From NCBI GenBank assembly GCA_000146045.2, contig BK006945.2, positions 640,001 to 704,000 on the forward strand: 64,000 nt of DNA, given 5' to 3'. Made by a program: the position numbers and the translations under genes. The stretch is from TPA_inf: Saccharomyces. Its lineage: Eukaryota. The notes below the pieces were generated by a model. It ran no database searches. It saw only the letters and a list, made by a program, of their open reading frames with translations, and was not told the origin of the DNA. Of the stretch, positions 9,401-64,000 are shown in pieces (the first letter of the stretch is position 1; the number at the start of each line of letters is the position of its first letter).

Positions 9401-10923
9401 CTCAAGAGGCATTAAATTTTGCCATGGATGGCTACAGAAACTGCATGATTTTCTTCAACAATATCAGAAACACCAATTCACTATTCGATTACATGAATGT
9501 TATCTTGTCTTACCCTTGTTTGGACATTGGACATCGTTCTTTACAATTTATCGTTTGTTTGATCCTGAGAGCTAAATGTGGCCCATTGACTGGTATGCGT
9601 GAATCATCGATCATTACTAATGGTACATCAAGTGGATTTAATAGTTCGGTAGAAGATGAGGACGTCAAAGTTAAACAAGAATCTTCTGATGAATTGAAAA
9701 AAGACGATTTCATGAAAGATGTAAATTTGGATTCAGGCGATTCATTAGCAGAGATTCTAATGTCAAGAATGCTGCTATTTCAAAAACTAACAAAACAACT
9801 ATCAAAGAAGTACAACTACGCTATTCGTATGAACAAATCCACTGGATTCTTTGTCTCTTTACTAGATACACCTTCAAAGAAATCAGACTCGAAATCGGGT
9901 GGTAGTTCATTCATGTTGGGTAATTGGAAACATCCAAAGGTTTCAAACATGAGCGGATTTCTTGCTGGTGACAAAGACCAATTACAGAAATGCCCCGTGT
10001 ACCAAGATGCGCTGGGGTTTGTTAGTCCAACCGGTGCTAATGAAGGTTCTGCTCCGATGCAAGGCATGTCCTTACAGGGCTCTACTGCTAGGATGGGAGG
10101 GACCCAGTTGCCACCAATTAGATCATACAAACCTATCACGTACACAAGTAGTAATCTACGTCGTATGAATGAAACGGGTGAGGCAGAAGCTAAGAGAAGA
10201 AGATTTAATGATGGCTATATTGATAATAATAGTAACAACGATATACCTAGAGGAATCAGCCCAAAACCTTCAAATGGGCTATCATCGGTGCAGCCACTAT
10301 TATCGTCATTTTCCATGAACCAGCTAAACGGGGGTACCATTCCAACGGTTCCATCGTTAACCAACATTACTTCACAAATGGGAGCTTTACCATCTTTAGA
10401 TAGGATCACCACTAATCAAATAAATTTGCCAGACCCATCTAGAGATGAAGCATTTGACAACTCCATCAAGCAAATGACGCCTATGACAAGTGCATTCATG
10501 AATGCTAATACTACAATTCCAAGTTCAACTTTAAACGGGAATATGAACATGAATGGAGCTGGAACTGCGAATACAGATACAAGTGCCAACGGCAGTGCTT
10601 TATCGACACTGACAAGCCCACAAGGCTCAGACTTAGCATCCAATTCTGCTACACAGTATAAACCTGACTTAGAAGACTTTTTGATGCAAAATTCTAACTT
10701 TAATGGGCTAATGATAAATCCTTCCAGTCTGGTAGAAGTTGTTGGTGGATACAACGATCCTAATAACCTTGGAAGAAATGACGCGGTTGATTTTCTACCC
10801 GTTGATAATGTTGAAATTGATGGTGTTGGAATAAAAATCAACTATCATCTACTAACTAGTATTTACGTTACTAGTATATTATCATATACGGTGTTAGAAG
10901 ATGACGCAAATGATGAGAAATAG
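6415..10923 (+). CDS. HAP1: Hap1 heme-activated Zn2Cys6 transcription factor in its Ty1-disrupted S288C-type form; the last 32 codons are read from the Ty1 5' LTR
   Basis: The N-terminus carries the Zn2Cys6 cluster CTICRKRKVKCDKLRPHCQQCTK. It also has a polyQ tract and seven KCPVDH-type heme-regulatory motifs. The ORF runs into TGTTGGAATA... (LTR) at 10824 and stops at 10921-10923 inside the LTR (...VGIKINYHLLTSIYVTSILSYTVLEDDANDEK), giving 1502 aa. Confidence 0.95.
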   Translation: MSNTPYNSSVPSIASMTQSSVSRSPNMHTATTPGANTSSNSPPLHMSSDSSKIKRKRNRIPLSCTICRKRKVKCDKLRPHCQQCTKTGVAHLCHYMEQTWAEEAEKELLKDNELKKLRERVKSLEKTLSKVHSSPSSNSLKSYNTPESSNLFMGSDEHTTLVNANTGSASSASHMHQQQQQQQQQEQQQDFSRSANANANSSSLSISNKYDNDELDLTKDFDLLHIKSNGTIHLGATHWLSIMKGDPYLKLLWGHIFAMREKLNEWYYQKNSYSKLKSSKCPINHAQAPPSAAAAATRKCPVDHSAFSSGMVAPKEETPLPRKCPVDHTMFSSGMIPPREDTSSQKRCPVDHTMYSAGMMPPKDETPSPFSTKAMIDHNKHTMNPPQSKCPVDHRNYMKDYPSDMANSSSNPASRCPIDHSSMKNTAALPASTHNTIPHHQPQSGSHARSHPAQSRKHDSYMTESEVLATLCEMLPPKRVIALFIEKFFKHLYPAIPILDEQNFKNHVNQMLSLSSMNPTVNNFGMSMPSSSTLENQPITQINLPKLSDSCNLGILIIILRLTWLSIPSNSCEVDLGEESGSFLVPNESSNMSASALTSMAKEESLLLKHETPVEALELCQKYLIKFDELSSISNNNVNLTTVQFAIFYNFYMKSASNDLTTLTNTNNTGMANPGHDSESHQILLSNITQMAFSCGLHRDPDNFPQLNATIPATSQDVSNNGSKKANPSTNPTLNNNMSAATTNSSSRSGSADSRSGSNPVNKKENQVSIERFKHTWRKIWYYIVSMDVNQSLSLGSPRLLRNLRDFSDTKLPSASRIDYVRDIKELIIVKNFTLFFQIDLCIIAVLNHILNVSLARSVRKFELDSLINLLKNLTYGTENVNDVVSSLINKGLLPTSEGGSVDSNNDEIYGLPKLPDILNHGQHNQNLYADGRNTSSSDIDKKLDLPHESTTRALFFSKHMTIRMLLYLLNYILFTHYEPMGSEDPGTNILAKEYAQEALNFAMDGYRNCMIFFNNIRNTNSLFDYMNVILSYPCLDIGHRSLQFIVCLILRAKCGPLTGMRESSIITNGTSSGFNSSVEDEDVKVKQESSDELKKDDFMKDVNLDSGDSLAEILMSRMLLFQKLTKQLSKKYNYAIRMNKSTGFFVSLLDTPSKKSDSKSGGSSFMLGNWKHPKVSNMSGFLAGDKDQLQKCPVYQDALGFVSPTGANEGSAPMQGMSLQGSTARMGGTQLPPIRSYKPITYTSSNLRRMNETGEAEAKRRRFNDGYIDNNSNNDIPRGISPKPSNGLSSVQPLLSSFSMNQLNGGTIPTVPSLTNITSQMGALPSLDRITTNQINLPDPSRDEAFDNSIKQMTPMTSAFMNANTTIPSSTLNGNMNMNGAGTANTDTSANGSALSTLTSPQGSDLASNSATQYKPDLEDFLMQNSNFNGLMINPSSLVEVVGGYNDPNNLGRNDAVDFLPVDNVEIDGVGIKINYHLLTSIYVTSILSYTVLEDDANDEK

Positions 10924-11157
10924 TCATCTAAATTAGTGGAAGCTGAAACGCAAGGATTGATAATGTAATAGGATCAATGAATATTAACATATAAAACGAT
11001 GATAATAATATTTATAGAATTGTGTAGAATTGCAGATTCCCTTTTATGGATTCCTAAATCCTCGAGGAGAACTTCTAGTATATTCTGTATACCTAATATT
11101 ATAGCCTTTATCAACAATGGAATCCCAACAATTATCTCAACACCCACACATTTCTCA
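10824..11157 (+). repeat. Ty1 5' LTR (delta), 334 bp
   Basis: Starts TGTTGGAATAAAAATCAACTATCATCTACTAACTAG and ends ...CATTTCTCA. It is almost identical to the 3' LTR, differing at about 4 positions, all within the last 25 bp. Confidence 0.95.
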
Positions 11158-12439
11158 TGGTAGCGCCTGTGCTTCGGTTACTTCTAAGGAAGTCCACACA
11201 AATCAAGATCCGTTAGACGTTTCAGCTTCCAAAACAGAAGAATGTGAGAAGGCTTCCACTAAGGCTAACTCTCAACAGACAACAACACCTGCTTCATCAG
11301 CTGTTCCAGAGAACCCCCATCATGCCTCTCCTCAACCTGCTTCAGTACCACCTCCACAGAATGGGCCGTACCCACAGCAGTGCATGATGACCCAAAACCA
11401 AGCCAATCCATCTGGTTGGTCATTTTACGGACACCCATCTATGATTCCGTATACACCTTATCAAATGTCGCCTATGTACTTTCCACCTGGGCCACAATCA
11501 CAGTTTCCGCAGTATCCATCATCAGTTGGAACGCCTCTGAGCACTCCATCACCTGAGTCAGGTAATACATTTACTGATTCATCCTCAGCGGACTCTGATA
11601 TGACATCCACTAAAAAATATGTCAGACCACCACCAATGTTAACCTCACCTAATGACTTTCCAAATTGGGTTAAAACATACATCAAATTTTTACAAAACTC
11701 GAATCTCGGTGGTATTATTCCGACAGTAAACGGAAAACCCGTACGTCAGATCACTGATGATGAACTCACCTTCTTGTATAACACTTTTCAAATATTTGCT
11801 CCCTCTCAATTCCTACCTACCTGGGTCAAAGACATCCTATCCGTTGATTATACGGATATCATGAAAATTCTTTCCAAAAGTATTGAAAAAATGCAATCTG
11901 ATACCCAAGAGGCAAACGACATTGTGACCCTGGCAAATTTGCAATATAATGGCAGTACACCTGCAGATGCATTTGAAACAAAAGTCACAAACATTATCGA
12001 CAGACTGAACAATAATGGCATTCATATCAATAACAAGGTCGCATGCCAATTAATTATGAGAGGTCTATCTGGCGAATATAAATTTTTACGCTACACACGT
12101 CATCGACATCTAAATATGACAGTCGCTGAACTGTTCTTAGATATCCATGCTATTTATGAAGAACAACAGGGATCGAGAAACAGCAAACCTAATTACAGGA
12201 GAAATCTGAGTGATGAGAAGAATGATTCTCGCAGCTATACGAATACAACCAAACCCAAAGTTATAGCTCGGAATCCTCAAAAAACAAATAATTCGAAATC
12301 GAAAACAGCCAGGGCTCACAATGTATCCACATCTAATAACTCTCCCAGCACGGACAACGATTCCATCAGTAAATCAACTACTGAACCGATTCAATTGAAC
12401 AATAAGCACGACCTTCACCTTAGGCCAGGAACTTACTGA
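11117..12439 (+). CDS. Ty1 TYA (Gag) capsid protein, 440 aa; it starts inside the 5' LTR
   Basis: [35 protein letters not shown]... is 440 aa. The +1 frameshift heptamer CTTAGGC lies at 12419-12425, just before the TYA stop. Confidence 0.95.
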
Positions 12440-13385
12440 ATCTACGGTAAATCACACTAATCATTCTGATGATGAACTCCCTGGACACCTCCTTCTCGAT
12501 TCAGGAGCATCACGAACCCTTATAAGATCTGCTCACCACATACACTCAGCATCATCTAATCCTGACATAAACGTAGTTGATGCTCAAAAAAGAAATATAC
12601 CAATTAACGCTATTGGTGACCTACAATTTCACTTCCAGGACAACACCAAAACATCAATAAAGGTATTGCACACTCCTAACATAGCCTATGACTTACTCAG
12701 TTTGAATGAATTGGCTGCAGTAGATATCACAGCATGCTTTACCAAAAACGTCTTAGAACGGTCTGACGGCACTGTACTTGCACCTATCGTAAAATATGGA
12801 GACTTTTACTGGGTATCTAAAAAGTACTTGCTTCCATCAAATATCTCCGTACCCACCATCAATAATGTCCATACAAGTGAAAGTACACGCAAATATCCTT
12901 ATCCTTTCATTCATCGAATGCTTGCGCATGCCAATGCACAGACAATTCGATACTCACTTAAAAATAACACCATCACGTATTTTAACGAATCAGATGTCGA
13001 CTGGTCTAGTGCTATTGACTATCAATGTCCTGATTGTTTAATCGGCAAAAGCACCAAACACAGACATATCAAAGGTTCACGACTAAAATACCAAAATTCA
13101 TACGAACCCTTTCAATACCTACATACTGACATATTTGGTCCAGTTCACAACCTACCAAATAGTGCACCATCCTATTTCATCTCATTTACTGATGAGACAA
13201 CAAAATTCCGTTGGGTTTATCCATTACACGACCGTCGCGAGGACTCTATCCTCGATGTTTTTACTACGATACTAGCTTTTATTAAAAACCAGTTTCAGGC
13301 CAGTGTCTTAGTTATACAAATGGACCGTGGTTCTGAGTATACTAACAGAACTCTCCATAAATTCCTTGAAAAAAAAATGGTATAA
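12423..13385 (+). pseudogene. Ty1 TYB (Pol) part 1: protease and integrase N-terminus, read in the +1 frame; it terminates prematurely after an A9 tract
   Basis: The frame entered by the +1 shift at CTT-AGG-C encodes [11 protein letters not shown] (protease DSG) and the integrase zinc finger H..H..CPDC. It ends ...HKFLEKKMV* at 13383-13385, immediately after a 9-A run at 13369-13377. Confidence 0.8.
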
Positions 13386-16300
13386 CTCCATGCTATACAA
13401 CCACAGCGGATTCCCGAGCACATGGAGTCGCTGAACGGCTAAACCGTACCTTATTAGATGACTGCCGTACTCAACTGCAATGTAGTGGTTTACCGAACCA
13501 TTTATGGTTCTCTGCAATCGAATTTTCTACTATTGTGAGAAATTCACTAGCTTCACCTAAAAGCAAAAAATCTGCAAGACAACATGCTGGCTTGGCAGGA
13601 CTTGATATCAGTACTTTGTTACCTTTCGGTCAACCTGTTATCGTCAATGATCACAACCCTAACTCCAAAATACATCCTCGTGGCATCCCAGGCTACGCTC
13701 TACATCCGTCTCGAAACTCTTATGGATATATCATCTATCTTCCGTCCTTAAAGAAGACAGTAGATACAACTAACTATGTTATTCTTCAGGGCAAGGAATC
13801 CAGATTAGATCAATTCAATTACGACGCACTCACTTTCGATGAAGACTTAAACCGTTTAACTGCTTCATATCATTCGTTCATTGCGTCAAATGAGATCCAA
13901 GAATCCAATGATCTTAACATAGAATCTGACCATGACTTCCAATCCGACATTGAACTACATCCTGAGCAACCGAGAAATGTCCTTTCAAAAGCTGTGAGTC
14001 CAACCGATTCCACACCTCCGTCAACTCATACTGAAGATTCGAAACGTGTTTCTAAAACCAATATTCGCGCACCCAGAGAAGTTGACCCCAACATATCTGA
14101 ATCTAATATTCTTCCATCAAAGAAGAGATCTAGCACCCCCCAAATTTCCAATATCGAGAGTACCGGTTCGGGTGGTATGCATAAATTAAATGTTCCTTTA
14201 CTTGCTCCCATGTCCCAATCTAACACACATGAGTCGTCGCACGCCAGTAAATCTAAAGATTTCAGACACTCAGACTCGTACAGTGAAAATGAGACTAATC
14301 ATACAAACGTACCAATATCCAGTACGGGTGGTACCAACAACAAAACTGTTCCGCAGATAAGTGACCAAGAGACTGAGAAAAGGATTATACACCGTTCACC
14401 TTCAATCGATGCTTCTCCACCGGAAAATAATTCATCGCACAATATTGTTCCTATCAAAACGCCAACTACTGTTTCTGAACAGAATACCGAGGAATCTATC
14501 ATCGCTGATCTCCCACTCCCTGATCTACCTCCAGAATCTCCTACCGAATTCCCTGACCCATTTAAAGAACTCCCACCGATAAATTCTCGTCAAACTAATT
14601 CCAGTTTGGGTGGTATTGGTGACTCTAATGCCTATACTACTATCAACAGTAAGAAAAGATCATTAGAAGATAATGAAACTGAAATTAAGGTATCACGAGA
14701 CACATGGAATACTAAGAATATGCGTAGTTTAGAACCTCCGAGATCGAAGAAACGAATTCACCTGATTGCAGCTGTAAAAGCAGTAAAATCAATCAAACCA
14801 ATACGGACAACCTTACGATACGATGAGGCAATCACCTATAATAAAGATATTAAAGAAAAAGAAAAATATATCGAGGCATACCACAAAGAAGTCAATCAAC
14901 TGTTGAAGATGAAAACTTGGGACACTGACGAATATTATGACAGAAAAGAAATAGACCCTAAAAGAGTAATAAACTCAATGTTTATCTTCAACAAGAAACG
15001 TGACGGTACTCATAAAGCTAGATTTGTTGCAAGAGGTGATATTCAGCATCCTGACACTTACGACTCAGGCATGCAATCCAATACCGTACATCACTATGCA
15101 TTAATGACATCCCTGTCACTTGCATTAGACAATAACTACTATATTACACAATTAGACATATCTTCGGCATATTTGTATGCAGACATCAAAGAAGAATTAT
15201 ACATAAGACCTCCACCACATTTAGGAATGAATGATAAGTTGATACGTTTGAAGAAATCACTTTATGGATTGAAACAAAGTGGAGCGAACTGGTACGAAAC
15301 TATCAAATCATACCTGATACAACAATGTGGTATGGAAGAAGTTCGTGGATGGTCATGCGTATTTAAAAACAGTCAAGTGACAATTTGTTTATTCGTAGAT
15401 GATATGGTATTGTTTAGCAAAAATCTAAATTCAAACAAAAGAATTATAGAGAAGCTTAAGATGCAATACGACACCAAGATTATAAATCTAGGCGAAAGTG
15501 ATGAGGAAATTCAATATGACATACTTGGCTTAGAAATCAAATATCAAAGAGGTAAATACATGAAATTAGGTATGGAAAACTCATTAACTGAGAAAATACC
15601 CAAATTAAACGTACCTTTGAATCCAAAAGGAAGAAAACTTAGCGCTCCAGGTCAACCAGGTCTTTATATAGACCAGGATGAACTAGAAATAGATGAAGAT
15701 GAATACAAAGAGAAGGTACATGAAATGCAAAAGTTGATTGGTCTAGCTTCATATGTTGGATATAAATTTAGATTTGACTTACTATACTACATCAACACAC
15801 TTGCTCAACATATACTATTCCCCTCTAGGCAAGTTTTAGACATGACATATGAGTTAATACAATTCATGTGGGACACTAGAGATAAACAATTAATATGGCA
15901 CAAAAACAAACCTACCAAGCCAGATAATAAACTAGTCGCAATAAGCGATGCTTCATATGGTAACCAACCATATTACAAGTCACAAATTGGTAACATTTTC
16001 CTACTCAACGGAAAAGTGATTGGAGGAAAGTCGACAAAGGCTTCGTTAACATGCACTTCAACTACAGAAGCAGAAATACACGCAGTCAGTGAAGCTATAC
16101 CGCTATTGAATAACCTCAGTCACCTTGTGCAAGAACTTAACAAGAAACCAATTATTAAAGGCTTACTTACTGATAGTAGATCAACGATCAGTATAATTAA
16201 GTCTACAAATGAAGAGAAATTTAGAAACAGATTTTTTGGCACAAAGGCAATGAGACTTAGAGATGAAGTATCAGGTAATAATTTATACGTATACTACATC

Positions 16301-16387
16301 GAGACCAAGAAGAACATTGCTGATGTGATGACAAAACCTCTTCCGATAAAAACATTTAAACTATTAACAAACAAATGGATTCATTAG
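13376..16387 (+). pseudogene. Ty1 TYB (Pol) part 2: rest of integrase, reverse transcriptase (YVDDM-type motif [11 protein letters not shown]) and RNase H, in a frame shifted -1 relative to part 1
   Basis: Translation from about 13376 in frame 2 gives [24 protein letters not shown]... and runs to the stop at 16385-16387 (...LLTNKWIH*). This is colinear with Ty1 Pol but out of frame with part 1. Confidence 0.8.
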
Positions 16388-43671: not shown

Positions 43672-46600
43672 TTATTCTTTTGCGGATACAACCTTGAAAC
43701 CTTGCTCCAATAATGCAGTGACGTCTTCATTTTTGTATGGTAGATTGTTTAGTACGAATGCAATATCATCCCATTGCTTTTGGGTCTCGCACTTTCTCAG
43801 TCTTCCAACTAATTTCTCGTTTAATTGCTTTTGGTGCCGTTCCTTATCGATAAAAGTTAACAGAAATTTGATGATTTTCTTGAAACTCTCCTTACCCAAT
43901 AAATCATCTGACGATAAATTACTAAAGATATCGATGAATCCATTATAAATGGCGTTGTCCTTGGATGCTAACTCGGTGAAAAATAATCTGCACATATCAC
44001 TTATTCCCTGGTCTGGATTGTCTAGGCATTTGGCCATTTCTCCTAATTGTCCTTTAACCTTAACCTGTCCAGCTAAAATCAAGAAGGTAACTGTCATTAA
44101 ACATGTTCTTTGTACCATTAAGTTTTCATCATGCAAACGGCGATACAAATAATCTGTGTTTTCGTCTACTAAGTTGTTGAAGCATACTGCCATGTCACCT
44201 AGTCCTAAGACAGCATTTGAGCGAATAGTAGGATCAGGAGATTTTTCCATTACTGTGATTAATAGCGGCAGGCTCTTTTCACAATATTTTGATGATAAAC
44301 ACATTAGTTTTTCTAGACATAAGGTTGCCGTTCTTTGAAGCATTGGATCGCTAAACCTGCTTGAATTAGAAACAATCTCTTCTACAATTGGGCAAAACTT
44401 CCCTAATATAGATTTTTCTCCAAATAGTAATTCATTCTCTTTTACAAATTGAATAGCATCCGTGAAATCGTCCTCATTAGTACCTCCTATCATTTCTAGC
44501 TCTTTATCACCACCGTTATCTTGTGTGGTGTTAGTTACATCTGCACCTTGGTTTTTTACTTTACCGTTCCGAGTTTCTGCCTCGATCTTTCTTTTCTTGA
44601 ATTCTGCCTCACATTTCTCTAGATAGACAAGTGTTTTAATTGCCACTTGTCCTACAATGAATAATAATTGACTGAGAGAAACAACTCTAGATGATTGTTC
44701 TAACGACAAAATAGAGTCTTCCTCTTCAGGTTTACCAAATGTCATCATTGTCTTTTCTCTAATCAGATCTGTAGCTAGTATATCGGGCTTAGAAGAGATT
44801 GTAAACAGTGCACTAAGCGCTTGTTCGCACATAGGATAATATTCATTATCCTTGGTATAGTTGATAATTATGGCATACAACTTTTTCACTGCAACATCTT
44901 CAAGCTCTTGATTTATTGCCTTGGTAATAATAGTGCTTCTCTTGGGAACCATTCTCTCTAACGCTAAACAAGAATACCGACAAAGGGTCAGATCTTTTAA
45001 ACCAACGGCACCAAGTCCAATGTTTAAAAGTGACTCCAGTCCTTTTAATGCTATTTCGTTATCGGCTAACGATAACATTCCTAAAATAATAATAGAACCA
45101 TGAATTTGTTCCTTAGAAAACCCTTTTTCGGAGTCACGGTTGTTCACATTTTGTTCTTTCTGCATACTGGCCTTCGATGCAGAATTGTAAATAGCCCAAA
45201 GGATATTAATGACATGTTGATCAATCAATTTTTGTTCATACATCATTCCTAATAGCTGTTCCAAAGAGGCCAAGTCTGCAATAGATGCGCCGATGCTTAG
45301 ATTAATTAAATTTTTGGCAATATGTGCCGCCTTCTCCTGCATATTGCAACTATCTGGCGCGGTTAAAAATAGCTGCTTATAACATTCTATCAAATGTACT
45401 GATATACTCGTTCCTTCATCGTTTGTGCCCTTCATCCAAACCAAATGCAGCATTTTTTTTATACCAAATTCGCTTAACTCAATGTCAAAAGCGTCTGCTA
45501 AAACTAGGAAGTCCATTGATTCTAAAACTTCGTTTCTGTTCTTAGAAAACAGCAAATTAGATATCAATTCAATACTCTTGTGTATCTCTTTAATGAAACT
45601 AATGGCATCTTTATAGTAAACAATCATTAACTTTAGCTTCATGAGAACACTGGTATTTGTTGCATTTATATTCTCTACCTCATTTTCTATTCTAGAAAGT
45701 TCTGCGCTCTTATTGAAAGAACCTTCTAACTCGGTCCTACATTGACCTTCATCTTGTTCTACCTCTTCTTCAATCAAAGACCTTTCAATCGTGTCATTCA
45801 GAGTTTCTTGTGACTCTACTTTCTTTAAAGTGGAATTTAGCTGTGATTCAGATCCTTTGAGATATTCTTCCCATTCACTCAGCCTCAATTGGCTACCATG
45901 TATGGCCTTAAAAGGATGTTTTAGCAATAATTTTGAAAGTAACTTTACTGAGTTCCTACGAACTAAAGAGGAGCGGTCCTGCAATGATCGTACTGCCAAC
46001 GAAGTAAATTTAGCTTTGCTTTTGTTAAATTTCGAACTCAAATCGCAGATCTTTGAACACCCTTGTATCGCCTTCGTTCTAACGTAGGGATTTGAATCCT
46101 GGAATCTTTCTTCTAGTAACTCAATAAGTACGGCTATTTGTTGTTTATAATGTTCCATAGTTTGTGGGTCTTGAGCCAATTCAGCCACAATATTTCCACA
46201 TGCTTCTACAACGGAACATCTCAATGTTATAGAACTATTGTTGAGTAAGGTGATGACAAGATTCATCTGTCGAAGCATTATTCCTGGTGATAGCTCTGAT
46301 AATTTAATCAAAAAATTTGATATTGCCTTTGGGCCTGTGGTATCCTTTGCGTTAAATACCCTGGTGCTGATTTCTTTCAAGATATCTTCTGTTAGTTGTG
46401 GATAGTTATATTCATCATTCAATAGTTTTAGTAATTCTGCATTAAAAACCGACAAATGAAGAAAATAAGTTAAATTTGTCATCAATGAACTTTGTATACT
46501 TGAACTTTGACCGTGATTTTTAACACACATAGCCAAAATCCTTTGAATAAACATCTTTAGTGATGATACCTTCGTCACAGGTTCAATCTCTAATAACACA

Positions 46601-47202
46601 AATAATGGTCTTGTGAACAAACCAATAAACAAATCCTTTTCAGGAGTTGTCTGAAATATCTTAGATAAGTTAATCTCCAGTAGCTTTGTTATAGATTCAA
46701 GCAAGTTTTCCATTTGATTACAGTCTCTTTTAAACAGCTCGACGTTTGCACTATCATTCTTACTGTTTTTGGCAGAACGGTTTAGATTGGTAGACTGCGA
46801 GGAGACCTTATGTAACTCATCTTGTAAAAACGTCAAAAGTACCTGAATAAGGTAGCCATACTCTTCTAAATGCCTTTTCCACTGCGGTATCAGGCCACCA
46901 ATTTCAGTAAAGTTAACATTTGATGAGAGATTAGCCTTAATATCTTTTGACAGATTCGACAGAGATGAACTTATCAAATAGCTTAGTTGAGTTTGTAATT
47001 TCGGTGTTAAGTGCGGGAAGTCATGGCAAAGATCTATTAATGCTTCTAGTGAATCTGGACTAGCATCTATTTGTTCGGGTGAAACGGCCAATTGGTCTAT
47101 GATAACATTCAGTTCTCTGGATGGGTCCTGCAAGCGAGGATATGATTCTCGATCTGTTGTTTGGAACTTGGTCAGATACTCGGAAAGGCTAAAGCCGGAC
47201 AT
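43672..47202 (-). CDS. YCS4: Ycs4, condensin non-SMC subunit and CAP-D2 homolog (1176 aa)
   Basis: A 1176-aa HEAT-repeat protein MSGFSLSEYLTKFQTTDRESYPRLQDP.... Length and sequence match YLR272C. Confidence 0.9.
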   Translation of the reverse strand: MSGFSLSEYLTKFQTTDRESYPRLQDPSRELNVIIDQLAVSPEQIDASPDSLEALIDLCHDFPHLTPKLQTQLSYLISSSLSNLSKDIKANLSSNVNFTEIGGLIPQWKRHLEEYGYLIQVLLTFLQDELHKVSSQSTNLNRSAKNSKNDSANVELFKRDCNQMENLLESITKLLEINLSKIFQTTPEKDLFIGLFTRPLFVLLEIEPVTKVSSLKMFIQRILAMCVKNHGQSSSIQSSLMTNLTYFLHLSVFNAELLKLLNDEYNYPQLTEDILKEISTRVFNAKDTTGPKAISNFLIKLSELSPGIMLRQMNLVITLLNNSSITLRCSVVEACGNIVAELAQDPQTMEHYKQQIAVLIELLEERFQDSNPYVRTKAIQGCSKICDLSSKFNKSKAKFTSLAVRSLQDRSSLVRRNSVKLLSKLLLKHPFKAIHGSQLRLSEWEEYLKGSESQLNSTLKKVESQETLNDTIERSLIEEEVEQDEGQCRTELEGSFNKSAELSRIENEVENINATNTSVLMKLKLMIVYYKDAISFIKEIHKSIELISNLLFSKNRNEVLESMDFLVLADAFDIELSEFGIKKMLHLVWMKGTNDEGTSISVHLIECYKQLFLTAPDSCNMQEKAAHIAKNLINLSIGASIADLASLEQLLGMMYEQKLIDQHVINILWAIYNSASKASMQKEQNVNNRDSEKGFSKEQIHGSIIILGMLSLADNEIALKGLESLLNIGLGAVGLKDLTLCRYSCLALERMVPKRSTIITKAINQELEDVAVKKLYAIIINYTKDNEYYPMCEQALSALFTISSKPDILATDLIREKTMMTFGKPEEEDSILSLEQSSRVVSLSQLLFIVGQVAIKTLVYLEKCEAEFKKRKIEAETRNGKVKNQGADVTNTTQDNGGDKELEMIGGTNEDDFTDAIQFVKENELLFGEKSILGKFCPIVEEIVSNSSRFSDPMLQRTATLCLEKLMCLSSKYCEKSLPLLITVMEKSPDPTIRSNAVLGLGDMAVCFNNLVDENTDYLYRRLHDENLMVQRTCLMTVTFLILAGQVKVKGQLGEMAKCLDNPDQGISDMCRLFFTELASKDNAIYNGFIDIFSNLSSDDLLGKESFKKIIKFLLTFIDKERHQKQLNEKLVGRLRKCETQKQWDDIAFVLNNLPYKNEDVTALLEQGFKVVSAKE

Positions 47203-47858
47203 CTCATAAAGTAACGAAGTCAGTTACCACCTATCAAAGGATAAAGATATTGTTACTGCTGCTTCCTTTACCTTTCTTTTTTTTGGTCAGTGACAGGTTA
47301 TTTTCTTTGTTTACTAAATGGTCGCAAGATTTTCGCGATGCGTTTAATTTTCATATTATTGCTTTCCAATTTACCCAAAGTGCAATTGACAAAGGCCATT
47401 AGTCTTTCTTTTTACAACAGTAAGAATATAAATATACAAGTGCAGTATTTAAGATACTTAATTCGAAAAGTGAAAAAAAAAAAAAAGAATCTGGAATTGG
47501 TTATTTTAATTTCTCATATGAATTGCTTTCCAAATTCTTGCAATCAATAACATTTTTTATTTATTTTTTTTTCAAGATCAGAACATGTATATATATATAT
47601 ATATATACTGTTCATACCAACAATTATCATTTAGTAGTAAAGTTTGTGATAACGATCAAGCTAGAAACTCCATAGATATCCTGACCCTTACTCGTTGTAA
47701 ATAAAAGGCTCGCGACAAGAAAACAACGCGTTACTTGATAATAATTTTAAAATCAAACAAAAGAGGTGGGGGAAAGAAGCCCTTACTATTGAATAGCAGA
47801 CATTTTATTCATCTCGCAATACTACTACATTTCTATGAAATATAACAGGTATAAAAAA

Positions 47859-55045: not shown

Positions 55046-56830
55046 TCATTTGAAGTTCTTCAACGGGTCTACTTTACCATTCTTTGGCTTACTGACTCTT
55101 CCCTTTTTATGTGAATGGCGCTTCTTAGCATTGTGGAAAGGAACAAACTTGACTTTGGTTCCATTTCCTCTGGCTGATTCAGGAAGCAAGTAATCTGGAA
55201 CACGCTTTAAATGCTGTTGCACTCTTGCTGGATGTAATTCTTTATCGTGTCTTAAACTTTGTAGCTCTTTTGGATTCTCCTCAAAATGTCTTTTCAACTT
55301 CTCACTTGCCAATAGTTCTTGTTTCAACTCTTTGACCCTAGCTTCTCTAATGGCAACTTGAGTAACAGCACGGAAACCGTCTTCCATTCTGTAACGGAAC
55401 GCCTCGACCTGCTTTTGATCGAATTTGTAAGGCTGTAATTCTAATCCAAGTTTGCTCTGTTGTTTGATGATTCGTGAAAGAATCCTTTCATCCTTCTTTG
55501 CTGTCTGTAGCATTGATGGCTTATGCTTACCAAATTCTTTCAGTGGGACTACGAATGAAATTGCAGTACCGGTCTTTCCGCCACGAGCAGTTCTACCTAC
55601 TCTATGCACGTAGGACTTAGCCGTCGTAGGTAAATCGAAATTGAGGACACATGCAACATTTTTGAAATCAACACCACGAGAAACACCATATTCCTTATCT
55701 TTCTTCACTTGGACCTTCTTTTTCTTGCTTGGTTTCTTATCGTTCTCAGGCTCGCCTTCCAAGCTTTTTTCTTCTTGATTTTCTGTATTGTGCCCTTCTT
55801 CTATTTCGTCATCTTCCTCTTTTATGTACTCGGTGTCATCTGTGGCAATCAATAGTTGGTAAACGTTTTTATTGAATTGGTCAACAATATGTTGCCTCGA
55901 ATTAACGGGTAGCTCGCTGTTTAAAATACAGGACTTGATACCAAATTGTTCCATAACTAGCTTGAGCCTATATCCTCTGTCAATATTATTTACAAAAATT
56001 AATGTTTTACCCTTGATTAAGTTAAGTTTAAAAATGACATAGCATAGTAAGAATTTGTCAAATTCACTGACTTTAACGTAATATTGAAGTAATTTGTTTT
56101 GGTTCTTATTTATTTCCTCGTCATTGAATTTAAGAATAGCTGGAGAACGACAAAATTTTTGTTTCAAAGCCTGTATATCGTCATTTAGGGTTGCACTCAT
56201 CAAAAATGTTTGTAAATTTTTTTTCAATGGTAAGTACTCTCCAATTTTGTTTAAATCATCTTGATAACCAAATGTTAACACTAAATCCACCTCATCAACT
56301 ACTAAAAATTTTAGTTCGTTCAATGAGATAGAATTAATCTTTGTTTGCAACAAATCCAATAATTTACCAGGTGTACCAACTATGATTTCTGGTTGATCCA
56401 TAAGTAGAGTGCTCAAAACTGAGTCAGACATATCGGATGATATGTTCAGAGTTCTTATATCTTTTGAACAATATAAGACTAGTTTTTCTAAAACATTATA
56501 TACTTGTTGAGCCAGTTCTCTTGTTGGAACAAGTATAATACCTAGTGTACCATTTTCCTCTCCGTTATCAATTGTTTTTTTATATTCTAGGATAGTTTCA
56601 ATTACAGGAATGAGGTATGCCAAAGTTTTTCCGGAACCTGTAGCGGCCTTTGCTATAATATCTCTCTTCTGTTGTAAAGCCAAAGGAATAGCATGTGATT
56701 GAATTAATGTTGGGTACTGAAATCCTATATTCTTAATAGCTTGTAATAAACGAGAGTCGAGATGAAATGCTTCGAACGTTGTAGAATCGTCAATATAAGC
56801 GCCTTCCACAGACTTTTTCTCATAGCTCAT
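55046..56830 (-). CDS. DBP9: Dbp9, nucleolar DEAD-box RNA helicase for 60S biogenesis (594 aa)
   Basis: Q-motif, Walker [13 protein letters not shown] (DEAD variant), SAT and HRVGRTAR motifs. Confidence 0.9.
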
Positions 56831-56955
56831 TTTTTTGATCTTTCGTTGCAGTTTTGGCTTAGTCTATTTCTTTTGTGAGATAAATTGTAGATTGACTATA
56901 ACTATCAGCCAAAACAAAAGGCTCTTACTCAATGAAAGAAATTAGAAGAATCGAA

Positions 56956-56989
56956 ATGAAATGAGATGAGATGAGATGAGATGAGATGG
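56956..56989. promoter_or_regulatory. (ATGAG)5-6 pentanucleotide microsatellite that reiterates the PAC core GATGAG four or more times, about 130-160 bp upstream of DBP9
   Basis: aatgaaATGAGATGAGATGAGATGAGATGAGATGG. Each 5-bp step regenerates GATGAG, and it reads CTCATC on the DBP9 coding strand. Confidence 0.55.
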
Positions 56990-57015
56990 TCTAGAAGAGT
57001 TATTCTTTATGTTCG

Positions 57016-57030
57016 TGAAAAAAAATTTTT
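57016..57030. promoter_or_regulatory. RRPE-like element TGAAAAAAAATTTTT, about 190 bp upstream of DBP9
   Basis: It matches the ribosomal RNA processing element consensus TGAAAAWTTTT with an extended A-run. It lies within 60 bp of the PAC-core repeat, the usual Ribi-regulon pairing. Confidence 0.5.
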
Positions 57031-57155
57031 AAAATTTCATCTCTAGGTTTCATTACGTAAAGAGTGATTAAGGTAAACAATAAAAGGCAGTTCTAACCAG
57101 ATTTTGGTTTGGTATTACTTCTATAAAGTAGTCTACTTAGTATGCGTAACTGTTT

Positions 57156-59495
57156 TTAACATAGCGGTGTGACCAAATTACCACCAATATTTAAGAGGCT
57201 TTCCACCCTACCTTTCAAAGGATTTGAATTACATTCTAAAATTTTCATATTGTTGAAGTCAATCTTAGCAGTGCTTTTACCTATGGTAACCACTCCAGTT
57301 ATAGTTTCCTCTTTATTACTTGCATATTCATCTTTATTGAGAAATAAAGTAAAACAGTCACCAAACTGTTCTTTAAACAACCTTGAGATTTGCTTCACCC
57401 TCTCAACTTCATCAATCTTACCTTGTGCATTAGACTGCACATTGTTATGATCATGATCATCACAAGAATGACTCGAAAGCTTGACACTGGCGGGAGCTGA
57501 ATCCACATTCATAAGTATAGCAATAATGGAGTCTGCTACAGTGTCATTCATTAAATCTTGAGTCCATTCCACAACGGCTAGAGTATTAACAATAGTTAAC
57601 TTAATATCACCCATTATCTGTAGAATCAATTTACCTGTATTGGTCAGATTGTCTTTTGACTCTTCTTTAACCTTTGGTTCTTGATTTGTTACTCTATCAT
57701 CATCTTGAAGAACTTCAGCCTCTCCAAACATTTGTAAAATGTGCCAGTAAATTAGCTCCTTTTTACAATTTACACGAACTGACTGGCGCTCTCTTAATAT
57801 CGTTGTAGAAAGATCGGGATGGTGCTCTCTTAAATCAGACAAAGAAAGGAAGTCTAATTCGAAATTTTTGTCATCTGAAACTAGAATCCCAGAAACGACT
57901 ATGTCTTTGTGTTCCTCTTCATCAACCAAACCTTTTTCTGCTTGAGAATCCAAGTTGTCTTCGTTTTCTTCCTTTATAGGTTCAATTTTAGCCGCAATTT
58001 CTTCCTTTATCTCTACGTTTTCTTCTTTATATATTTCGTTCACAATATTTCCCACAGCTTTTGCAACCTTGACACCTTGAAATTCAAGATCTACTTCAAC
58101 ACAGTTTCTAGGATTAAAAACATGGACTTCATTATCTGTACCCTTTAAAGACGCGAAATTGGATAACAATGCAGATTTCAAACGGCCCATGGGATTGGCT
58201 TCTCCATGAACAAGGATGATATTTGGCGCACTAATCTTTTCAATAAATTCTAAATTTTCCTGGAAGTCAACGTGTGCGGCAAAGGAGATTTCTTCAACTT
58301 GACAACGTCTTGGAATGGTTATTTCCGGATTATTTATGGAAGGTATTGTATCTGGCTCAAGCATAATAAATTTCGCCATTGTTCCTTCGATGGAGTAACC
58401 GGTGATTAGTACTAGATTTTTATCTTCAGGGCACCACCTTTCAAGTAAATCTCTTGATAACCCACTTTGCAGCATACCTGGTGAGGCCAACATCACACTG
58501 GGACCAAAATCTTGGAAATCCTCCAAGTTTCTAAGATAAGATATATTTTTGAATATGAAGGGATTAGTCTGAGAGTCTCTAAATTTTTTTCTAATGTCAT
58601 CATTCATCATATTTACATAGGTTTGAAAAACGCTCATACATTTTTTTGCCAAATTTGATGCATAAAATATTGGGACTTGTCCACCACCGAGTTCATCAGC
58701 ATGTTGAGACCAGTACTCATCCAGTATAAGCATGATTTCTTGAGCTCTCCCTAAAGCAAAAACAGGCAGTAGAACACGGCCTCCTCTCATCACTGTGGAA
58801 TGGATTAGTTGGGTTAGCTTCCTTTCTCTATTTAAACGGGGCTCGTGAGTAGCGGTACCAAAGGTAGATTCCACAATTAATACGTTGGATGAAAGTGGAG
58901 GCACCTCAGCAGAATTTAAGTGACGATCTACTTCTCTCGAATAGTCACCTGTGAATAACACCCTAAGGCCAGCAATCTCTATTTGAAACATCGCTGCACC
59001 CAATACATGGCCTGCATGGAATGCCGTAAATTTGATACCATTGACGTCAACAGTAGAATGATAGTCCACCGTTTCAATTTTATCGAAAGAATCAACTAAA
59101 TCCTCATCTGAGAATAGACCTTCGTCTTTAGTCCCCATAGAGGAGGATGAAGAACCTATACTAGTAACTCTTACAAAATCTCGCAGTAGCCATCTGTAAA
59201 TGGCTTTGGTTGGATGTGTCATGAAAACTCTGCCTTGAAAGTTAGTCCGTTGCATCACATACGGAAGTGAAGCGGCATGGTCTAAATGGAAATGTGATAT
59301 CAGTAAGATATCGACTTTGGAAAGATCAAATTCATCGTAAAAAGGTAATGAAGCTAATCCTTGATATGCCGGATGAATTCCTGCGTCGAGCATCACTGTT
59401 TTACCTTTATATTGCAATATATGACATGATCGTCCAACTTCGTTACTTCCTCCCAATGAAAAAAATTTGAATGTTGTTGTATTTGTTCGCTCCAT
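57156..59495 (-). CDS. YSH1: Ysh1 (Brr5), CPSF-73-like mRNA 3'-end endonuclease of the metallo-beta-lactamase / beta-CASP family (779 aa)
   Basis: HxHxDH motif (ISHFHLDHAASLPY) and beta-CASP signatures. 779 aa. Confidence 0.95.
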   Translation of the reverse strand: MERTNTTTFKFFSLGGSNEVGRSCHILQYKGKTVMLDAGIHPAYQGLASLPFYDEFDLSKVDILLISHFHLDHAASLPYVMQRTNFQGRVFMTHPTKAIYRWLLRDFVRVTSIGSSSSSMGTKDEGLFSDEDLVDSFDKIETVDYHSTVDVNGIKFTAFHAGHVLGAAMFQIEIAGLRVLFTGDYSREVDRHLNSAEVPPLSSNVLIVESTFGTATHEPRLNRERKLTQLIHSTVMRGGRVLLPVFALGRAQEIMLILDEYWSQHADELGGGQVPIFYASNLAKKCMSVFQTYVNMMNDDIRKKFRDSQTNPFIFKNISYLRNLEDFQDFGPSVMLASPGMLQSGLSRDLLERWCPEDKNLVLITGYSIEGTMAKFIMLEPDTIPSINNPEITIPRRCQVEEISFAAHVDFQENLEFIEKISAPNIILVHGEANPMGRLKSALLSNFASLKGTDNEVHVFNPRNCVEVDLEFQGVKVAKAVGNIVNEIYKEENVEIKEEIAAKIEPIKEENEDNLDSQAEKGLVDEEEHKDIVVSGILVSDDKNFELDFLSLSDLREHHPDLSTTILRERQSVRVNCKKELIYWHILQMFGEAEVLQDDDRVTNQEPKVKEESKDNLTNTGKLILQIMGDIKLTIVNTLAVVEWTQDLMNDTVADSIIAILMNVDSAPASVKLSSHSCDDHDHNNVQSNAQGKIDEVERVKQISRLFKEQFGDCFTLFLNKDEYASNKEETITGVVTIGKSTAKIDFNNMKILECNSNPLKGRVESLLNIGGNLVTPLC

Positions 59496-59998: not shown

Positions 59999-62900
59999 TC
60001 ACGTTAAAAAGCCGTAGTCATCATTAATCGTCCAAAAGTCTTCTACCGGACCAGATGTCATCATGTTATCCCAGTTAGAACGCTTTTTCCTGATGTCTGC
60101 GTTAGTTACTGTAGGAATAACATTGTCGAAATGCAGATTTGCGCTAGTGTTTGCTTCCACCTGTGTTTTAGGTCCATTCTTCTCTGTTTCGTCAAGATTA
60201 TATTGTACACCTTCCTGATTGGACATCATGAACAAATTTCTGTTATACGAAGGGTCATTCTGCGTCTGTTGAAAATTATTAGCGGTTACATTGTTTTCAG
60301 AACACATATTTTGTTGTTGATGTTGTTGCTGCTGTTTGTCCATGGACAGAGATGAAGGCTCTTGACTCTGGGGAAATATTGTTTGTAGTATGGACTTGCT
60401 ATTCAAAGCATCTAGAACGGAGTTATTGGTCCAGGTGGAAATATTGTTGATCATGTCATGAGCACCGTTGCTGAAAAGTATATCGCCCGAAGAAGAGCCA
60501 TTTCGAGCTTGTTTGACACTGACCGGAATTGAATTGCTAGTAAATGACGCTGGTATCGAGGAGATAATATTATTGCCATAATCTGCTCTTAGGGGTGATG
60601 TACTGAAATTTGATTCTTCGACATCTCTTAATTGCTTATTTTCACTTGTATGGTTAGAGAATATTGCAGATTGTAGAGGATTACTGTTGATCATACCATT
60701 GTTTAATTGATTCGTAAAATTGCTTTCTGAGAATCTTTGTGGAGAAGTAATATGTTGTTGTGGCTGCTCCCGCTGTTGTTGCGGCAGTGGTCGTGATACA
60801 TGCTGTTGCGGTAGCATATTGGAAGTTTGAGGATATGGAGTTGGGCTTTGCGTCATCGCTATTGGAATCGGATCCGAATGCGAAGAGGCTGTAGATATGC
60901 TAGAAGATTTTGAAGGACTTCTATTGGTCATAGTATCGGTGTTCAGGGACGATAGATACGCTTGTAAATTGTGCTGAGCTAGTTGCTGTTGTAGAAAGGC
61001 CTGCTGTTGAAATACTTGCCAATCAAACTCTGTTTGGTTGGTTGGTTTCTTGACGATATATTGGTCTTGAATAGGCCTTTCTACATCATTTTCCATAGTT
61101 ACGTTGTTGTTACGAACATACTGGCTGTTGTTGCCATTATTGCAGCTGTTGTTGGTAGTGCTTCTGCTATTACTTTCATTATCATTATTATTAACATTAT
61201 TATTATTATTACTATTATTATTATTATTGTTATTATTATTATTATTATCATTATTATTGTTGTGATTATTGTTGTGTTCTCTGTTGACGCTGCTGATGGT
61301 CATACCATTGTTATCATTGTTTACATTGATTTTCAGGTTTTTTTCTTGGGAAGAAGGAAACGATAATGTCGACGATGATGACGAAGAAGAAGATGATGAC
61401 GAAGAAGATGTTGTATAAGACATTGAAGAATTTGAAATACGTGACCTGTCATCCATTTTGGTTAATAGGTGAGCTAAACTTTTGGGTACAGAGGTCTTTT
61501 CTAAAACACCTTGCTTCTTCTTGAATTTCTCTTGTTCAGCCAAATCCACTTGTGAATTTTCCACAAAACCGGCGTGCTCTTCAGCTTGTCCTTTACCAAA
61601 TATTCTAGCCACAGCAGGCGGCATACCGCCATTATGAGATATATTTTTATCGTTTGAATTGGATAGATTAGCTGCATTTGCGGAGTTAGAATCATGAAGA
61701 GTATCCCCAGATGAAATTGCCTTATTGGCCTCATCATTGATGTTCTTGGGTTCAGTACGCTTGGCGACACTACTAGCCATGAAAATTAACTCAGAAGAGT
61801 CTGGACCACATCTTTCAATCAAATTACCTACCGTGGCATTCATTAACTGATCGAAAGTATCTCTAAAGGTTCTTGCAAAATTAGACCTTTCTGTCATAAC
61901 ATATAAACAAACGGAGCAAGCTCTCAAATCATCCATCGTCGAAAAGAGACTTGCACTGATTAAAGGTCTAGTATGCTTCGAAGCATCGCCTAATTTCTTC
62001 CTCCTTTGATCGTCAAAATTCCTGGCTAACCACATACAGTAGATTAAAGTTACGCCAGCTACAAAAACCGTATGCACTGCTGGTGTAGAATGACCATTAA
62101 GCGTTTTTTGATGGAATATCTTGTATAACTGACAAATTTGACCCGCAGCAGCTTGACATTCTCTAAATAGTCTATCCTCCGGGGCGAAAAATTCCAAATA
62201 TGGTTGTATAAGCAATCGCACTGATCTATAGTAATAAAGTTTTAGTGTCTCGTTTTCGAAATTTTTCACGTCAAGAGTGGAATAACTTTTTCTCCAAACT
62301 TCCAAATCTTCAAAAAATTTTCGTACTAGGGGCAATTGATCAATGGATTGCTTCACTGACCTGGAATCGTTTTTCAATAGCTGTAAAGTCTCTACAAATT
62401 GAGATTCAATTCTTCGCAGCTTTAGAGACTGATTGATGAATTGCACACCATGGTCATTGGTTGATGGAGCCGCCGCATGCACACCTTTTGTATAAAAAGA
62501 GTCGTTATTGAAAAGAGGTAAATTTATTTCCGACTCCTTGATTGTATAAGGTTTCCCCACAGCAACACAAATCATTCTTTCCAACAGGTAAACACACCAA
62601 AATAGTCGCAGTTTCTTATTTGCAAATGGATCATTAGGATACCATTGATTTAGATGAAGTTTCTTCTTGGATATGCCCATGACATCCTTGATTATGTCAT
62701 ATAGTATCAGAGAATCTCTATCAGTCCTAATAATGTAAAGGACAAGCAATGTCAACAGTTCTATTTGCTGAACATAATTCAAATGTAGACCACACTTAGT
62801 GATGTGACGGATAGCGGTGGAGAAATATCGGTGAGGTGGAAACCCCTTGTACTTACCTGTGGTCATCAGTAAGTAGGCGCTGATGCTGAAGACAAGCCAC

Positions 62901-64000
62901 ATTCTGCCGGATAGAAAATGAAATTCTATTTCAGAATACGAATGTGAATTCGACGGTGGTGCTGCGGAAGACGTGGCGGGAGAAGATGGTGGGATAAGAA
63001 TCTTGTTGTGGAGGTAGTGGTCATAAAAAGTATAGATTTCTTGTTCGTCTAAGATAGGGTACTTGAATTGTAATCTTGTGAAAAAAGTGTCCAAGAAGGA
63101 ACGTGACAGCTTCTCATTCAGTTCAAAAATAGGGTCATACATCAAAAACTCTTTTTTCAAATTGTATTTGGCAAAAATACACTTAGTGAAGTCCAGCGTC
63201 TCTAAAGGGTCATTCAAAAGGCTCGCGGATTGGCAGATAGCATTATTGTTGTTTATGTTGTTCGTACTGGCCGATGTATCGTTAGTGGCCGCATTAACGT
63301 TGCTGCCGTTATTGTTTGTGTTCTCCAGGGGTTTGTTGGAAGGAGATGGCAGCGGCAGTATGACCATATTGCTGCTGTTCGGTCTAGAGTAATCAGAAGT
63401 GTTGTTACTGAACAAATGAGAAACCTTCTTGTACTGGGATAATTCGTAGTTGTACTGGTTGCATCCCGGCGATAAATCGAGCAAAGTCTCCAAACTTTTT
63501 AGTTTTTTCTCCAAGAAAATCGTATACTGATCTTTGTCTTGCCTCATCAGGTTTGGATTGGAATTTGTCGTGACGGACTTTATCGTTTTCCTGAATTCAT
63601 TCGCGTCGCCAGCATCAACATTACTATTGCTAGTGGAAATGGGTTTTATTATCGTCATGTCATTCAGAGAAGTGGCAGCGCCAGCGCCAGCGCCAATACT
63701 GCTATCTTGCAGCTCACGTTTTATTACAGGATGAGGTGTAGGAGGTACAGTGCCAGCTGTAGGGGTGTTGTTGTTGGTGTTACTGTTCGAAGTGGAAGAA
63801 GAGTACTTGGAGGGCTGCACGCACTTTATTCCTGCTTTCAAACAGGCGGTACAACTGGGTAATTTATGGTCGCATCGTTGCTTTCTTCTTCTACAAAGAA
63901 GACAAGACCTGGAACGGCCCTTTTTGTCTTGCAACAAGACGTCTGTCCTGTTACCGGCCAGCTCCAGTTCTCTCTTCAACTGTTGTATTTTCTCCTGGCT
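59999..64000 (-). CDS. Zn2Cys6 zinc-cluster transcription-factor-like protein with Asn/Ser/Gln-rich low-complexity regions (YLR278C). It is 5'-truncated by the window edge, and the true start is probably ~45 nt beyond position 64000.
   Basis: The zinc cluster CLLCRRRKQRCDHKLPSCTACLKAGIKC lies near the in-window N-terminus, followed by a fungal-TF middle homology region, a long poly-N / (AAT)n tract and a poly-Ser run. The ORF is open to the window end. Confidence 0.8.
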   Translation of the reverse strand, partial: SQEKIQQLKRELELAGNRTDVLLQDKKGRSRSCLLCRRRKQRCDHKLPSCTACLKAGIKCVQPSKYSSSTSNSNTNNNTPTAGTVPPTPHPVIKRELQDSSIGAGAGAATSLNDMTIIKPISTSNSNVDAGDANEFRKTIKSVTTNSNPNLMRQDKDQYTIFLEKKLKSLETLLDLSPGCNQYNYELSQYKKVSHLFSNNTSDYSRPNSSNMVILPLPSPSNKPLENTNNNGSNVNAATNDTSASTNNINNNNAICQSASLLNDPLETLDFTKCIFAKYNLKKEFLMYDPIFELNEKLSRSFLDTFFTRLQFKYPILDEQEIYTFYDHYLHNKILIPPSSPATSSAAPPSNSHSYSEIEFHFLSGRMWLVFSISAYLLMTTGKYKGFPPHRYFSTAIRHITKCGLHLNYVQQIELLTLLVLYIIRTDRDSLILYDIIKDVMGISKKKLHLNQWYPNDPFANKKLRLFWCVYLLERMICVAVGKPYTIKESEINLPLFNNDSFYTKGVHAAAPSTNDHGVQFINQSLKLRRIESQFVETLQLLKNDSRSVKQSIDQLPLVRKFFEDLEVWRKSYSTLDVKNFENETLKLYYYRSVRLLIQPYLEFFAPEDRLFRECQAAAGQICQLYKIFHQKTLNGHSTPAVHTVFVAGVTLIYCMWLARNFDDQRRKKLGDASKHTRPLISASLFSTMDDLRACSVCLYVMTERSNFARTFRDTFDQLMNATVGNLIERCGPDSSELIFMASSVAKRTEPKNINDEANKAISSGDTLHDSNSANAANLSNSNDKNISHNGGMPPAVARIFGKGQAEEHAGFVENSQVDLAEQEKFKKKQGVLEKTSVPKSLAHLLTKMDDRSRISNSSMSYTTSSSSSSSSSSSSSTLSFPSSQEKNLKINVNNDNNGMTISSVNREHNNNHNNNNDNNNNNNNNNNNSNNNNNVNNNDNESNSRSTTNNSCNNGNNSQYVRNNNVTMENDVERPIQDQYIVKKPTNQTEFDWQVFQQQAFLQQQLAQHNLQAYLSSLNTDTMTNRSPSKSSSISTASSHSDPIPIAMTQSPTPYPQTSNMLPQQHVSRPLPQQQREQPQQHITSPQRFSESNFTNQLNNGMINSNPLQSAIFSNHTSENKQLRDVEESNFSTSPLRADYGNNIISSIPASFTSNSIPVSVKQARNGSSSGDILFSNGAHDMINNISTWTNNSVLDALNSKSILQTIFPQSQEPSSLSMDKQQQQHQQQNMCSENNVTANNFQQTQNDPSYNRNLFMMSNQEGVQYNLDETEKNGPKTQVEANTSANLHFDNVIPTVTNADIRKKRSNWDNMMTSGPVEDFWTINDDYGFLT

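Follow-up and report, generated by a model that had tools for sequence, protein, structure and literature searches.

A conserved tandem array of overlapping PAC cores, variable in length among strains, in the promoter of yeast DBP9

The YSH1-DBP9 spacer and its promoter elements

The stretch of DNA analyzed here (hereafter the window) comprises 64 kb of Saccharomyces cerevisiae chromosome XII and contains, side by side, the genes DBP9 (YLR276C) and YSH1 (YLR277C) (Table 1). The product of the ORF assigned to DBP9 is 100% identical to Dbp9p of S. cerevisiae and contains the DEAD and Helicase_C domains, which confirms the gene named in an earlier reading made from the sequence alone (the sequence-only reading). 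Homologues of SMD2 and MCM5 are the downstream genes. The intergenic spacer between YSH1 and DBP9 is 325 bp in length (56831-57155) and houses a pentanucleotide array, and the synteny of the two genes is kept in every species examined.

Table 1. Genes and promoter elements at the DBP9 locus (window coordinates; distances are relative to the DBP9 ATG)
Feature	Position	Strand	Distance from ATG	Remarks
DBP9 (YLR276C) ORF	55046-56830	-		594 aa; DEAD-box helicase; regulated gene
Degenerate repeat units ATCGAAATGAA (TTCATTTCGAT in gene orientation)	56950-56960	+		gene-proximal side of the array; without GATGAG
(ATGAG)5ATG array	56961-56988	+	-131 to -158	perfect
RRPE-like A/T element TGAAAAAAAATTTTT	57016-57030	+	-186 to -200	presumed Stb3/Sfp1-type site
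Second, weaker RRPE-like half element TGAAATTTT	57031-57039	-		abuts the first; pattern match only; weakly conserved
Abf1 consensus site ATCACTCTTTACG	57056-57068	-	-226 to -238	RTCRYN5ACG
YSH1 (YLR277C) ORF	57156-59495	-		779 aa; CPSF73-type domain set; upstream neighbor of DBP9, same strand

The perfect part of the array, (ATGAG)5, spans 56961-56985 on the forward strand and is followed by ATG up to 56988; on the sense strand of DBP9, the same repeat reads (CTCAT)5. Embedded in it are four overlapping copies of GATGAG, the core of the PAC element, at 56965, 56970, 56975, and 56980 (-135 to -155 relative to the DBP9 ATG); each core starts 5 bp after the previous one and shares one base with it. 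The sequence-only reading had described a core that recurs in phase four to five times within an (ATGAG)n repeat, with the elements placed at about -130 to -200 from DBP9, and both the count of four and the positions in Table 1 agree with it. Tandem Repeats Finder (TRF) extends the period-5 array, at a 77% match, from 56931 to 56988; the degenerate units at 56950-56960 are specific to S. cerevisiae and are missing from the other aligned species. The exact PAC consensus, GCGATGAGMT, is absent from the array, where four units each read GAGATGAGAT, matching it at 9 of 10 positions with one mismatch. A putative extended form of the consensus contains MTGARAW.

Among perfect repeats with a period of 4-6 and at least four units, this array is the only one in the 64-kb window, while dinucleotide shuffles gave an expectation of 0.005 such repeats per window. 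Moreover, four GATGAG cores within 25 bp were found in none of 200 shuffles, and the array as a chance event is excluded. Across the window as a whole, neither GATGAG (39 observed versus 31.9 expected) nor RRPE-like words are enriched; the signal is therefore one of local clustering of cores, not of abundance.

Upstream of the array in gene orientation, at a distance of 27 bp and on the same strand, lies the A/T element TGAAAAAAAATTTTT, which includes the core AAAATTTT at 57022-57029 and sits where the sequence-only reading had placed an RRPE-like sequence. Exact matches to TGAAAAWTTTT or TGAAAAWTTTY are absent at 57016-57030, a segment with eight A's, and matches with one mismatch occur there only on the reverse strand. 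What held of the proposed PAC and RRPE identities was thus the GATGAG cores and the arrangement of the elements; the full GCGATGAGMT and the exact TGAAAAWTTTT did not.

A typical promoter of a ribosome-biogenesis gene consists of an Abf1 site, an RRPE ~25 bp further on, and a PAC after another ~25 bp, with the modal position of PAC at 75-125 bp from the ATG (PMC5416754). An independent study likewise reported a preferred order of RRPE then PAC, with one strand for both motifs. The order at DBP9 (Abf1, RRPE-like element, and PAC array) matches this published layout (PMC5416754; Bosio et al.). The Abf1 site fits RTCRYN5ACG, is conserved, and lies about 25 bp upstream of the RRPE-like element; that element is conserved and precedes the array by a comparable gap; and the array itself is proximal to the ATG, 3' of the RRPE at a short distance, and on the same strand. 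This standard order and spacing bear out the claim that DBP9 has a ribosome-biogenesis-type promoter. When compared with the form RTCAYN5ACGR, the Abf1 site has a T in place of the trailing R in this window. Besides activating DBP9, the Abf1 block could insulate the promoter from YSH1 read-through.

Several other features of the window were noted along the way. A palindromic bZIP-like sequence, TTACGTAA, at 57053-57060, overlaps the Abf1 site, ~90-100 bp past the stop codon of YSH1. At the other end of the window, a near-consensus PAC, TCGATGAGAT (6244-6253, reverse strand), is found ~50 bp from the overlapping RRPE-like words AGAAAATTTTT and AGAAAAATTTT (6304-6316). The two stand in the order PAC then RRPE relative to a 1502-aa ORF (6415-10923) that lies downstream of both, and which we take to be HAP1, not a ribosome-biogenesis gene. 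Directly after this ORF come two others of 440 and 950 aa (11117-16387) that resemble TYA/TYB of Ty1, and these presumably represent the Ty1 element whose insertion at the HAP1 3' end is specific to S288C. At 61196-61247, inside a large reverse-strand ORF (59999-63979), (ATT)5, (TAT)5, and (TTA)6 stand next to one another as perfect trinucleotide runs that possibly form a variable low-complexity coding tract. Finally, the longest dinucleotide microsatellite in the window, a perfect (TA)10 at 47588-47607, is intergenic and lies upstream of a 1176-aa reverse-strand ORF (43672-47202); it is a candidate for another variable promoter repeat.

Conservation of the array and its length variation

Orthologous promoters were retrieved via their Dbp9 proteins. 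An array of four units, AGCTCATC(TCATC)3, was found in S. eubayanus and S. arboricola and in three strains each of S. uvarum and S. kudriavzevii, and the distal unit of these four-unit arrays carries the canonical GATGAGCT flank. Kluyveromyces lactis has three units (AGCTCATCTCATCTCATC) at -157 to -142, in an array that also ends in GATGAGCT, with an RRPE, GAAAATTTTT, six bases upstream. Nakaseomyces glabratus is without the array and carries in its place two canonical GCGATGAG sites, located and oriented as the array is elsewhere. These sites, CCTCATCGC and AGCTCATCGC, are 18 bp apart, and GCGATGAGCT in this species is an exact match to GCGATGAGMT.

In an alignment of six Saccharomyces species, the spacer is ~66% identical overall, and at least three consecutive perfect units are present in every species. 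The longest invariant run is the Abf1 box (15 columns, ATCACTCTTTACGTA); the second longest is the array (14 columns, CATCTCATCTCATC), although invariance within a repeat is partly favored by the alignment because any register aligns; and the third longest is a 6-column run of T in the RRPE-like A/T block, which is conserved across Saccharomyces. By comparison, the maximum invariant run in 10,000 permutations was 12. Conservation of the array in orthologous promoters is thus seen both in this 14-column run and in the three units of K. lactis.

The repeat had been called expanded in the sequence-only reading. An expansion specific to S. cerevisiae was considered and rejected, given that three units are present in K. 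lactis and four in four other Saccharomyces species, and an array of 3-4 units is ancestral. S. cerevisiae does stand apart in having lost the distal GATGAGCT core (ATGAGCT to ATGGCCT or ATGGTCT) and in its longer, variable array. By this comparison, the multi-core tandem PAC at DBP9 is an ancestral feature under constraint, which predates the split between Kluyveromyces and Saccharomyces, and not a recent expansion.

Changes of other kinds were seen in individual Saccharomyces promoters. In one Saccharomyces with 95% Dbp9 identity, one unit at about -120 to -150 is mutated (CCCAT), and an extra CTCATC occurs a few bases downstream, in the stretch GACTCATCTAA (the S. cerevisiae counterpart is GATTCTTCTAA). 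Four cores in total are preserved in this promoter, a hint that the extra site makes up for the lost one and, by extension, that the number of cores is under selection. In S. uvarum and S. eubayanus, a long poly-T tract preceded by CTCTCT stands beside the RRPE-like element at about -165 to -185. This tract is absent from S. cerevisiae, and its length ranges from 15 to 17 T across the three strains of S. uvarum, so that the DBP9 promoter of this species contains a further repeat of variable length, here a mononucleotide one.

Length variation within S. cerevisiae was followed in 24 assemblies with a complete promoter, the window included, which were picked via Dbp9 protein alleles and collapsed by neighborhood. 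Because such a sample is non-random, the following counts give the range of unit numbers and not their frequencies: four units in 1 of 24 assemblies, five in 5 (the window among them), five with an A-to-G interruption in 3, six in 10, seven in 3, and eight in 1. The five units of S288C are therefore fewer than those of the commonest allele in the sample, and the array has at least five units in most of the strains sampled. An invariant repeat number had been named in advance as evidence against a mutable promoter; the number instead varies from four to eight, and the array shows the polymorphism among strains that is expected of a variable promoter repeat.

Haplotypes were compared by alignment over 960 bp of flanking sequence, with 26 variable columns and a 1-bp indel in an A/T tract. 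One flanking haplotype was shared by six assemblies, of which five had six units and one had eight, and haplotypes that differ by one SNP carried four versus five units or six versus seven. Differing unit counts on identical or near-identical haplotypes point to recent and recurrent slippage. The four-unit arrays of S. kudriavzevii and S. uvarum were constant in length among three strains each, which, for samples this tiny, is consistent with a length threshold for slippage. A metagenome scan using the flank of the array yielded only one extra locus. In addition, five short-read S. cerevisiae contigs from Logan start within the repeat itself, at 160 bp from the ATG, and show six units; the assemblies break at this point either because the k-mers used are shorter than the array or because diploid strains are heterozygous for its length.

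Dot6/Tod6 dependence and the likely role of the array

When TORC1/PKA signaling drops, the RPD3L complex is recruited by Dot6, Tod6, and Stb3 (PMC13084002, PMC11983098). GATGAG serves as the working consensus of Dot6/Tod6 and is carried by 82% of the genes with a repression defect in the dot6 tod6 mutant (PMC13084002); the DBP9 promoter holds this core in the four overlapping copies between 56965 and 56985. DBP9 is annotated as "PAC cluster" in the supplement to the same study, and its response to NaCl at 20-30 min was a log2 change of -3.8 to -4.7 in the wild type, -0.6 to -2.1 in dot6, -3.0 to -4.0 in tod6 (close to the wild-type range), and -0.66 to -1.3 in dot6 tod6, where it was flagged as differentially expressed (PMC13084002). 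Thus, in these published RNA-seq data, repression of DBP9 by salt, roughly 16-26-fold in the wild type, is only some 2-fold in the double mutant (PMC13084002), and stress repression of the gene depends on Dot6/Tod6, although the dependence could in principle be indirect. In the table of that study, DBP9 is scored as having two GATGAG sites because overlapping hits were excluded, an example of how standard motif counting under-reports arrays of overlapping cores.

Dot6 and Tod6 are not among the factors in the ChIP-exo sets of Rossi and Mittal (PMC11983098), and no report of Dot6 or Tod6 occupancy at DBP9 was found in the literature searched. In the main texts covered by the search, DBP9 was linked to neither eQTLs nor Dot6. 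A 2025 paper on yeast tandem repeats and expression and a paper on decoy sites mention neither DBP9 nor ATGAG, and the string GCGATGAGMTGARAW returned no match in the literature search. The array, its polymorphism, and its deep conservation were undescribed in the main texts searched, which cover the subscription literature in part.

The best-supported explanation, which we consider probable, is that the array is a conserved, functional, multi-core PAC within an Abf1-RRPE-PAC promoter, and that in S. cerevisiae it has become long enough to slip. Its grounds are the anatomy, conservation, and polymorphism of the sequence, all directly observed, and the Dot6/Tod6 dependence of DBP9 repression established in the literature. 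From these we infer that Dot6/Tod6 act via the array, and it is in the same sense that the number of bound molecules and a possible influence of the number of units on transcription are spoken of below. During growth, Abf1 and the A/T element would keep the promoter open and active. Once TORC1/PKA signaling drops, dephosphorylated Dot6 (and Tod6) would move into the nucleus and occupy GATGAG, and the RPD3L deacetylase that they bring to the promoter would shut DBP9 down. Selection appears to have retained several cores over one, as 3-4 perfect units are found from K. lactis through Saccharomyces, and the fact that no S. cerevisiae core has the preferred GC flank suggests that multiplicity probably compensates for weaker individual sites. 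The S. cerevisiae array, at the same time, behaves as a slippage-prone microsatellite that segregates at 4-8 units.

Slippage by itself might be thought to account for both the persistence and the variation of the repeat, with its GATGAG content being incidental. The array is indeed length-polymorphic like any microsatellite, has decayed units on one side, and is without a full-consensus PAC. Nevertheless, such a neutral origin is extremely improbable in view of the retention of 3-4 perfect units in both K. lactis and Saccharomyces although the rest of the spacer is 66% identical even within Saccharomyces, of the two canonical PACs that take the place of the array in N. glabratus, of the position of the array in the slot expected of a PAC downstream of RRPE and Abf1, and of the Dot6/Tod6 dependence of DBP9. 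The same N. glabratus promoter, which retains the motif without the repeat, also speaks against the view that the array works mainly through DNA structure, nucleosome exclusion, or spacing, and not through repressor dosage, as does the fact that the repeated word is exactly the Dot6/Tod6 core, more than an A/T-rich or stiff sequence. According to a review (PMC3899988), tandem repeats in yeast promoters are enriched in nucleosome-free regions and affect nucleosome positioning. Each unit gained or lost at DBP9 would move the upstream elements by 5 bp, or roughly half a helical turn, and changes in unit number would then matter through the distance of the Abf1/RRPE block from the transcription start site. 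As the main function of the array, a role of this kind, spacing included, strikes us as very unlikely; it could, however, coexist with repressor binding.

The array might further act as an evolvable rheostat, in which unit number would set the strength or kinetics of repression by Dot6/Tod6, natural alleles of 4-8 units would differ heritably in DBP9 regulation, and slippage would supply adaptive variation. Length alleles are common and recur on near-identical haplotypes, repression of DBP9 is strongly Dot6-dependent, and precedents exist both for promoter repeats that alter how many transcription-factor sites are present and for variable repeats in yeast promoters with an effect on expression (PMC3899988). 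However, cores that lie 5 bp apart and overlap by one base make independent occupancy of all of them impossible, and, within a natural range of 3-7, any gain may level off at the 3-4 cores that other species have retained. Moreover, DBP9 is essential and belongs to a tightly co-regulated regulon, so that selection might be expected to buffer its expression and not to diversify it. On balance, we regard a rheostat as unlikely. The earlier proposal that binding-site dosage is mutable by slippage accordingly stands as to the variation of unit number between four and eight, while a linear rise of dosage with each unit would be impossible for overlapping cores. A related idea, less likely again in our judgment, is that Dot6/Tod6 read the multimerized (ATGAG)n cooperatively as the functional unit, and that the S. 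cerevisiae tract has crossed a slippage threshold; alleles of 4-8 units would then confer a graded and heritable speed or depth of stress shut-off. Cooperative reading would explain both the presence of two units in PAC consensus sequences and the persistence of 3-4 units at DBP9 since the split between Kluyveromyces and Saccharomyces.

Comparison with known promoters and repeats

Promoters with PAC, RRPE, and Abf1 sites, variable yeast promoter repeats, and microsatellites that multiply transcription-factor sites are all established, and the DBP9 array is a real variant of a well-known promoter design, probably a functional one, with no new mechanism. If unit number matters, the array would offer a compact natural system for learning how the effects of low-affinity repressor sites combine when the sites overlap in a eukaryotic promoter, and would show whether microsatellite slippage feeds standing regulatory variation in a tightly co-regulated growth regulon. 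If unit number is irrelevant, the array is a well-conserved PAC element that is incidentally repetitive.

One close relative is the canonical PAC-RRPE module with an Abf1/Reb1 site, which operates through Dot6/Tod6 and Stb3 via RPD3L. DBP9 shares with it the GATGAG core, the Abf1-RRPE-PAC order, the ~25-bp spacing, the placement of RRPE and PAC on one strand within ~240 bp of the ATG, the "PAC cluster" annotation, and the dependence on Dot6/Tod6. It differs in having four (range 3-7) overlapping cores without a GC flank in place of a single GCGATGAGMT, in the extended A run of its RRPE, and in the location of the array, which is slightly upstream of the canonical modal position.

Tandem ATGAG units are not peculiar to DBP9. 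Another published form of PAC, GCGATGAGATGAG, itself comprises two ATGAG units, and an element that inherently consists of about two such units is a natural seed for a pentanucleotide microsatellite. Wang et al. (2004) used a natural PAC oligonucleotide from another yeast promoter, GGGATGAGATGAGATGAGAT, which has at least three tandem units and had no activating (UAS) activity in a reporter. Both the extended PAC and this oligonucleotide thus resemble DBP9, whose array would be an especially long instance of a feature general to PAC; unlike the PAC of Wang et al., it reaches 5-8 units in S. cerevisiae and is length-polymorphic.

Outside the PAC family, the variable yeast promoter repeats of Vinces et al. 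(2009, Science 324:1213; summarized in PMC3899988) resemble the DBP9 array in that unit number differs among S. cerevisiae strains. As reported there, those repeats are mostly A/T-rich and act mainly by nucleosome exclusion, whereas the DBP9 unit is a specific repressor site that has long been conserved. In the (TAAA)n repeat of Neisseria nadA with IHF, and the (TCC)n repeat of human EGFR with Sp1, slippage likewise alters the number of copies of a protein-binding word (PMC3899988). DBP9 differs from both in organism and factor, in having sites that overlap at a 5-bp phase, and in belonging to a housekeeping growth regulon instead of being a contingency or phase-variable gene.
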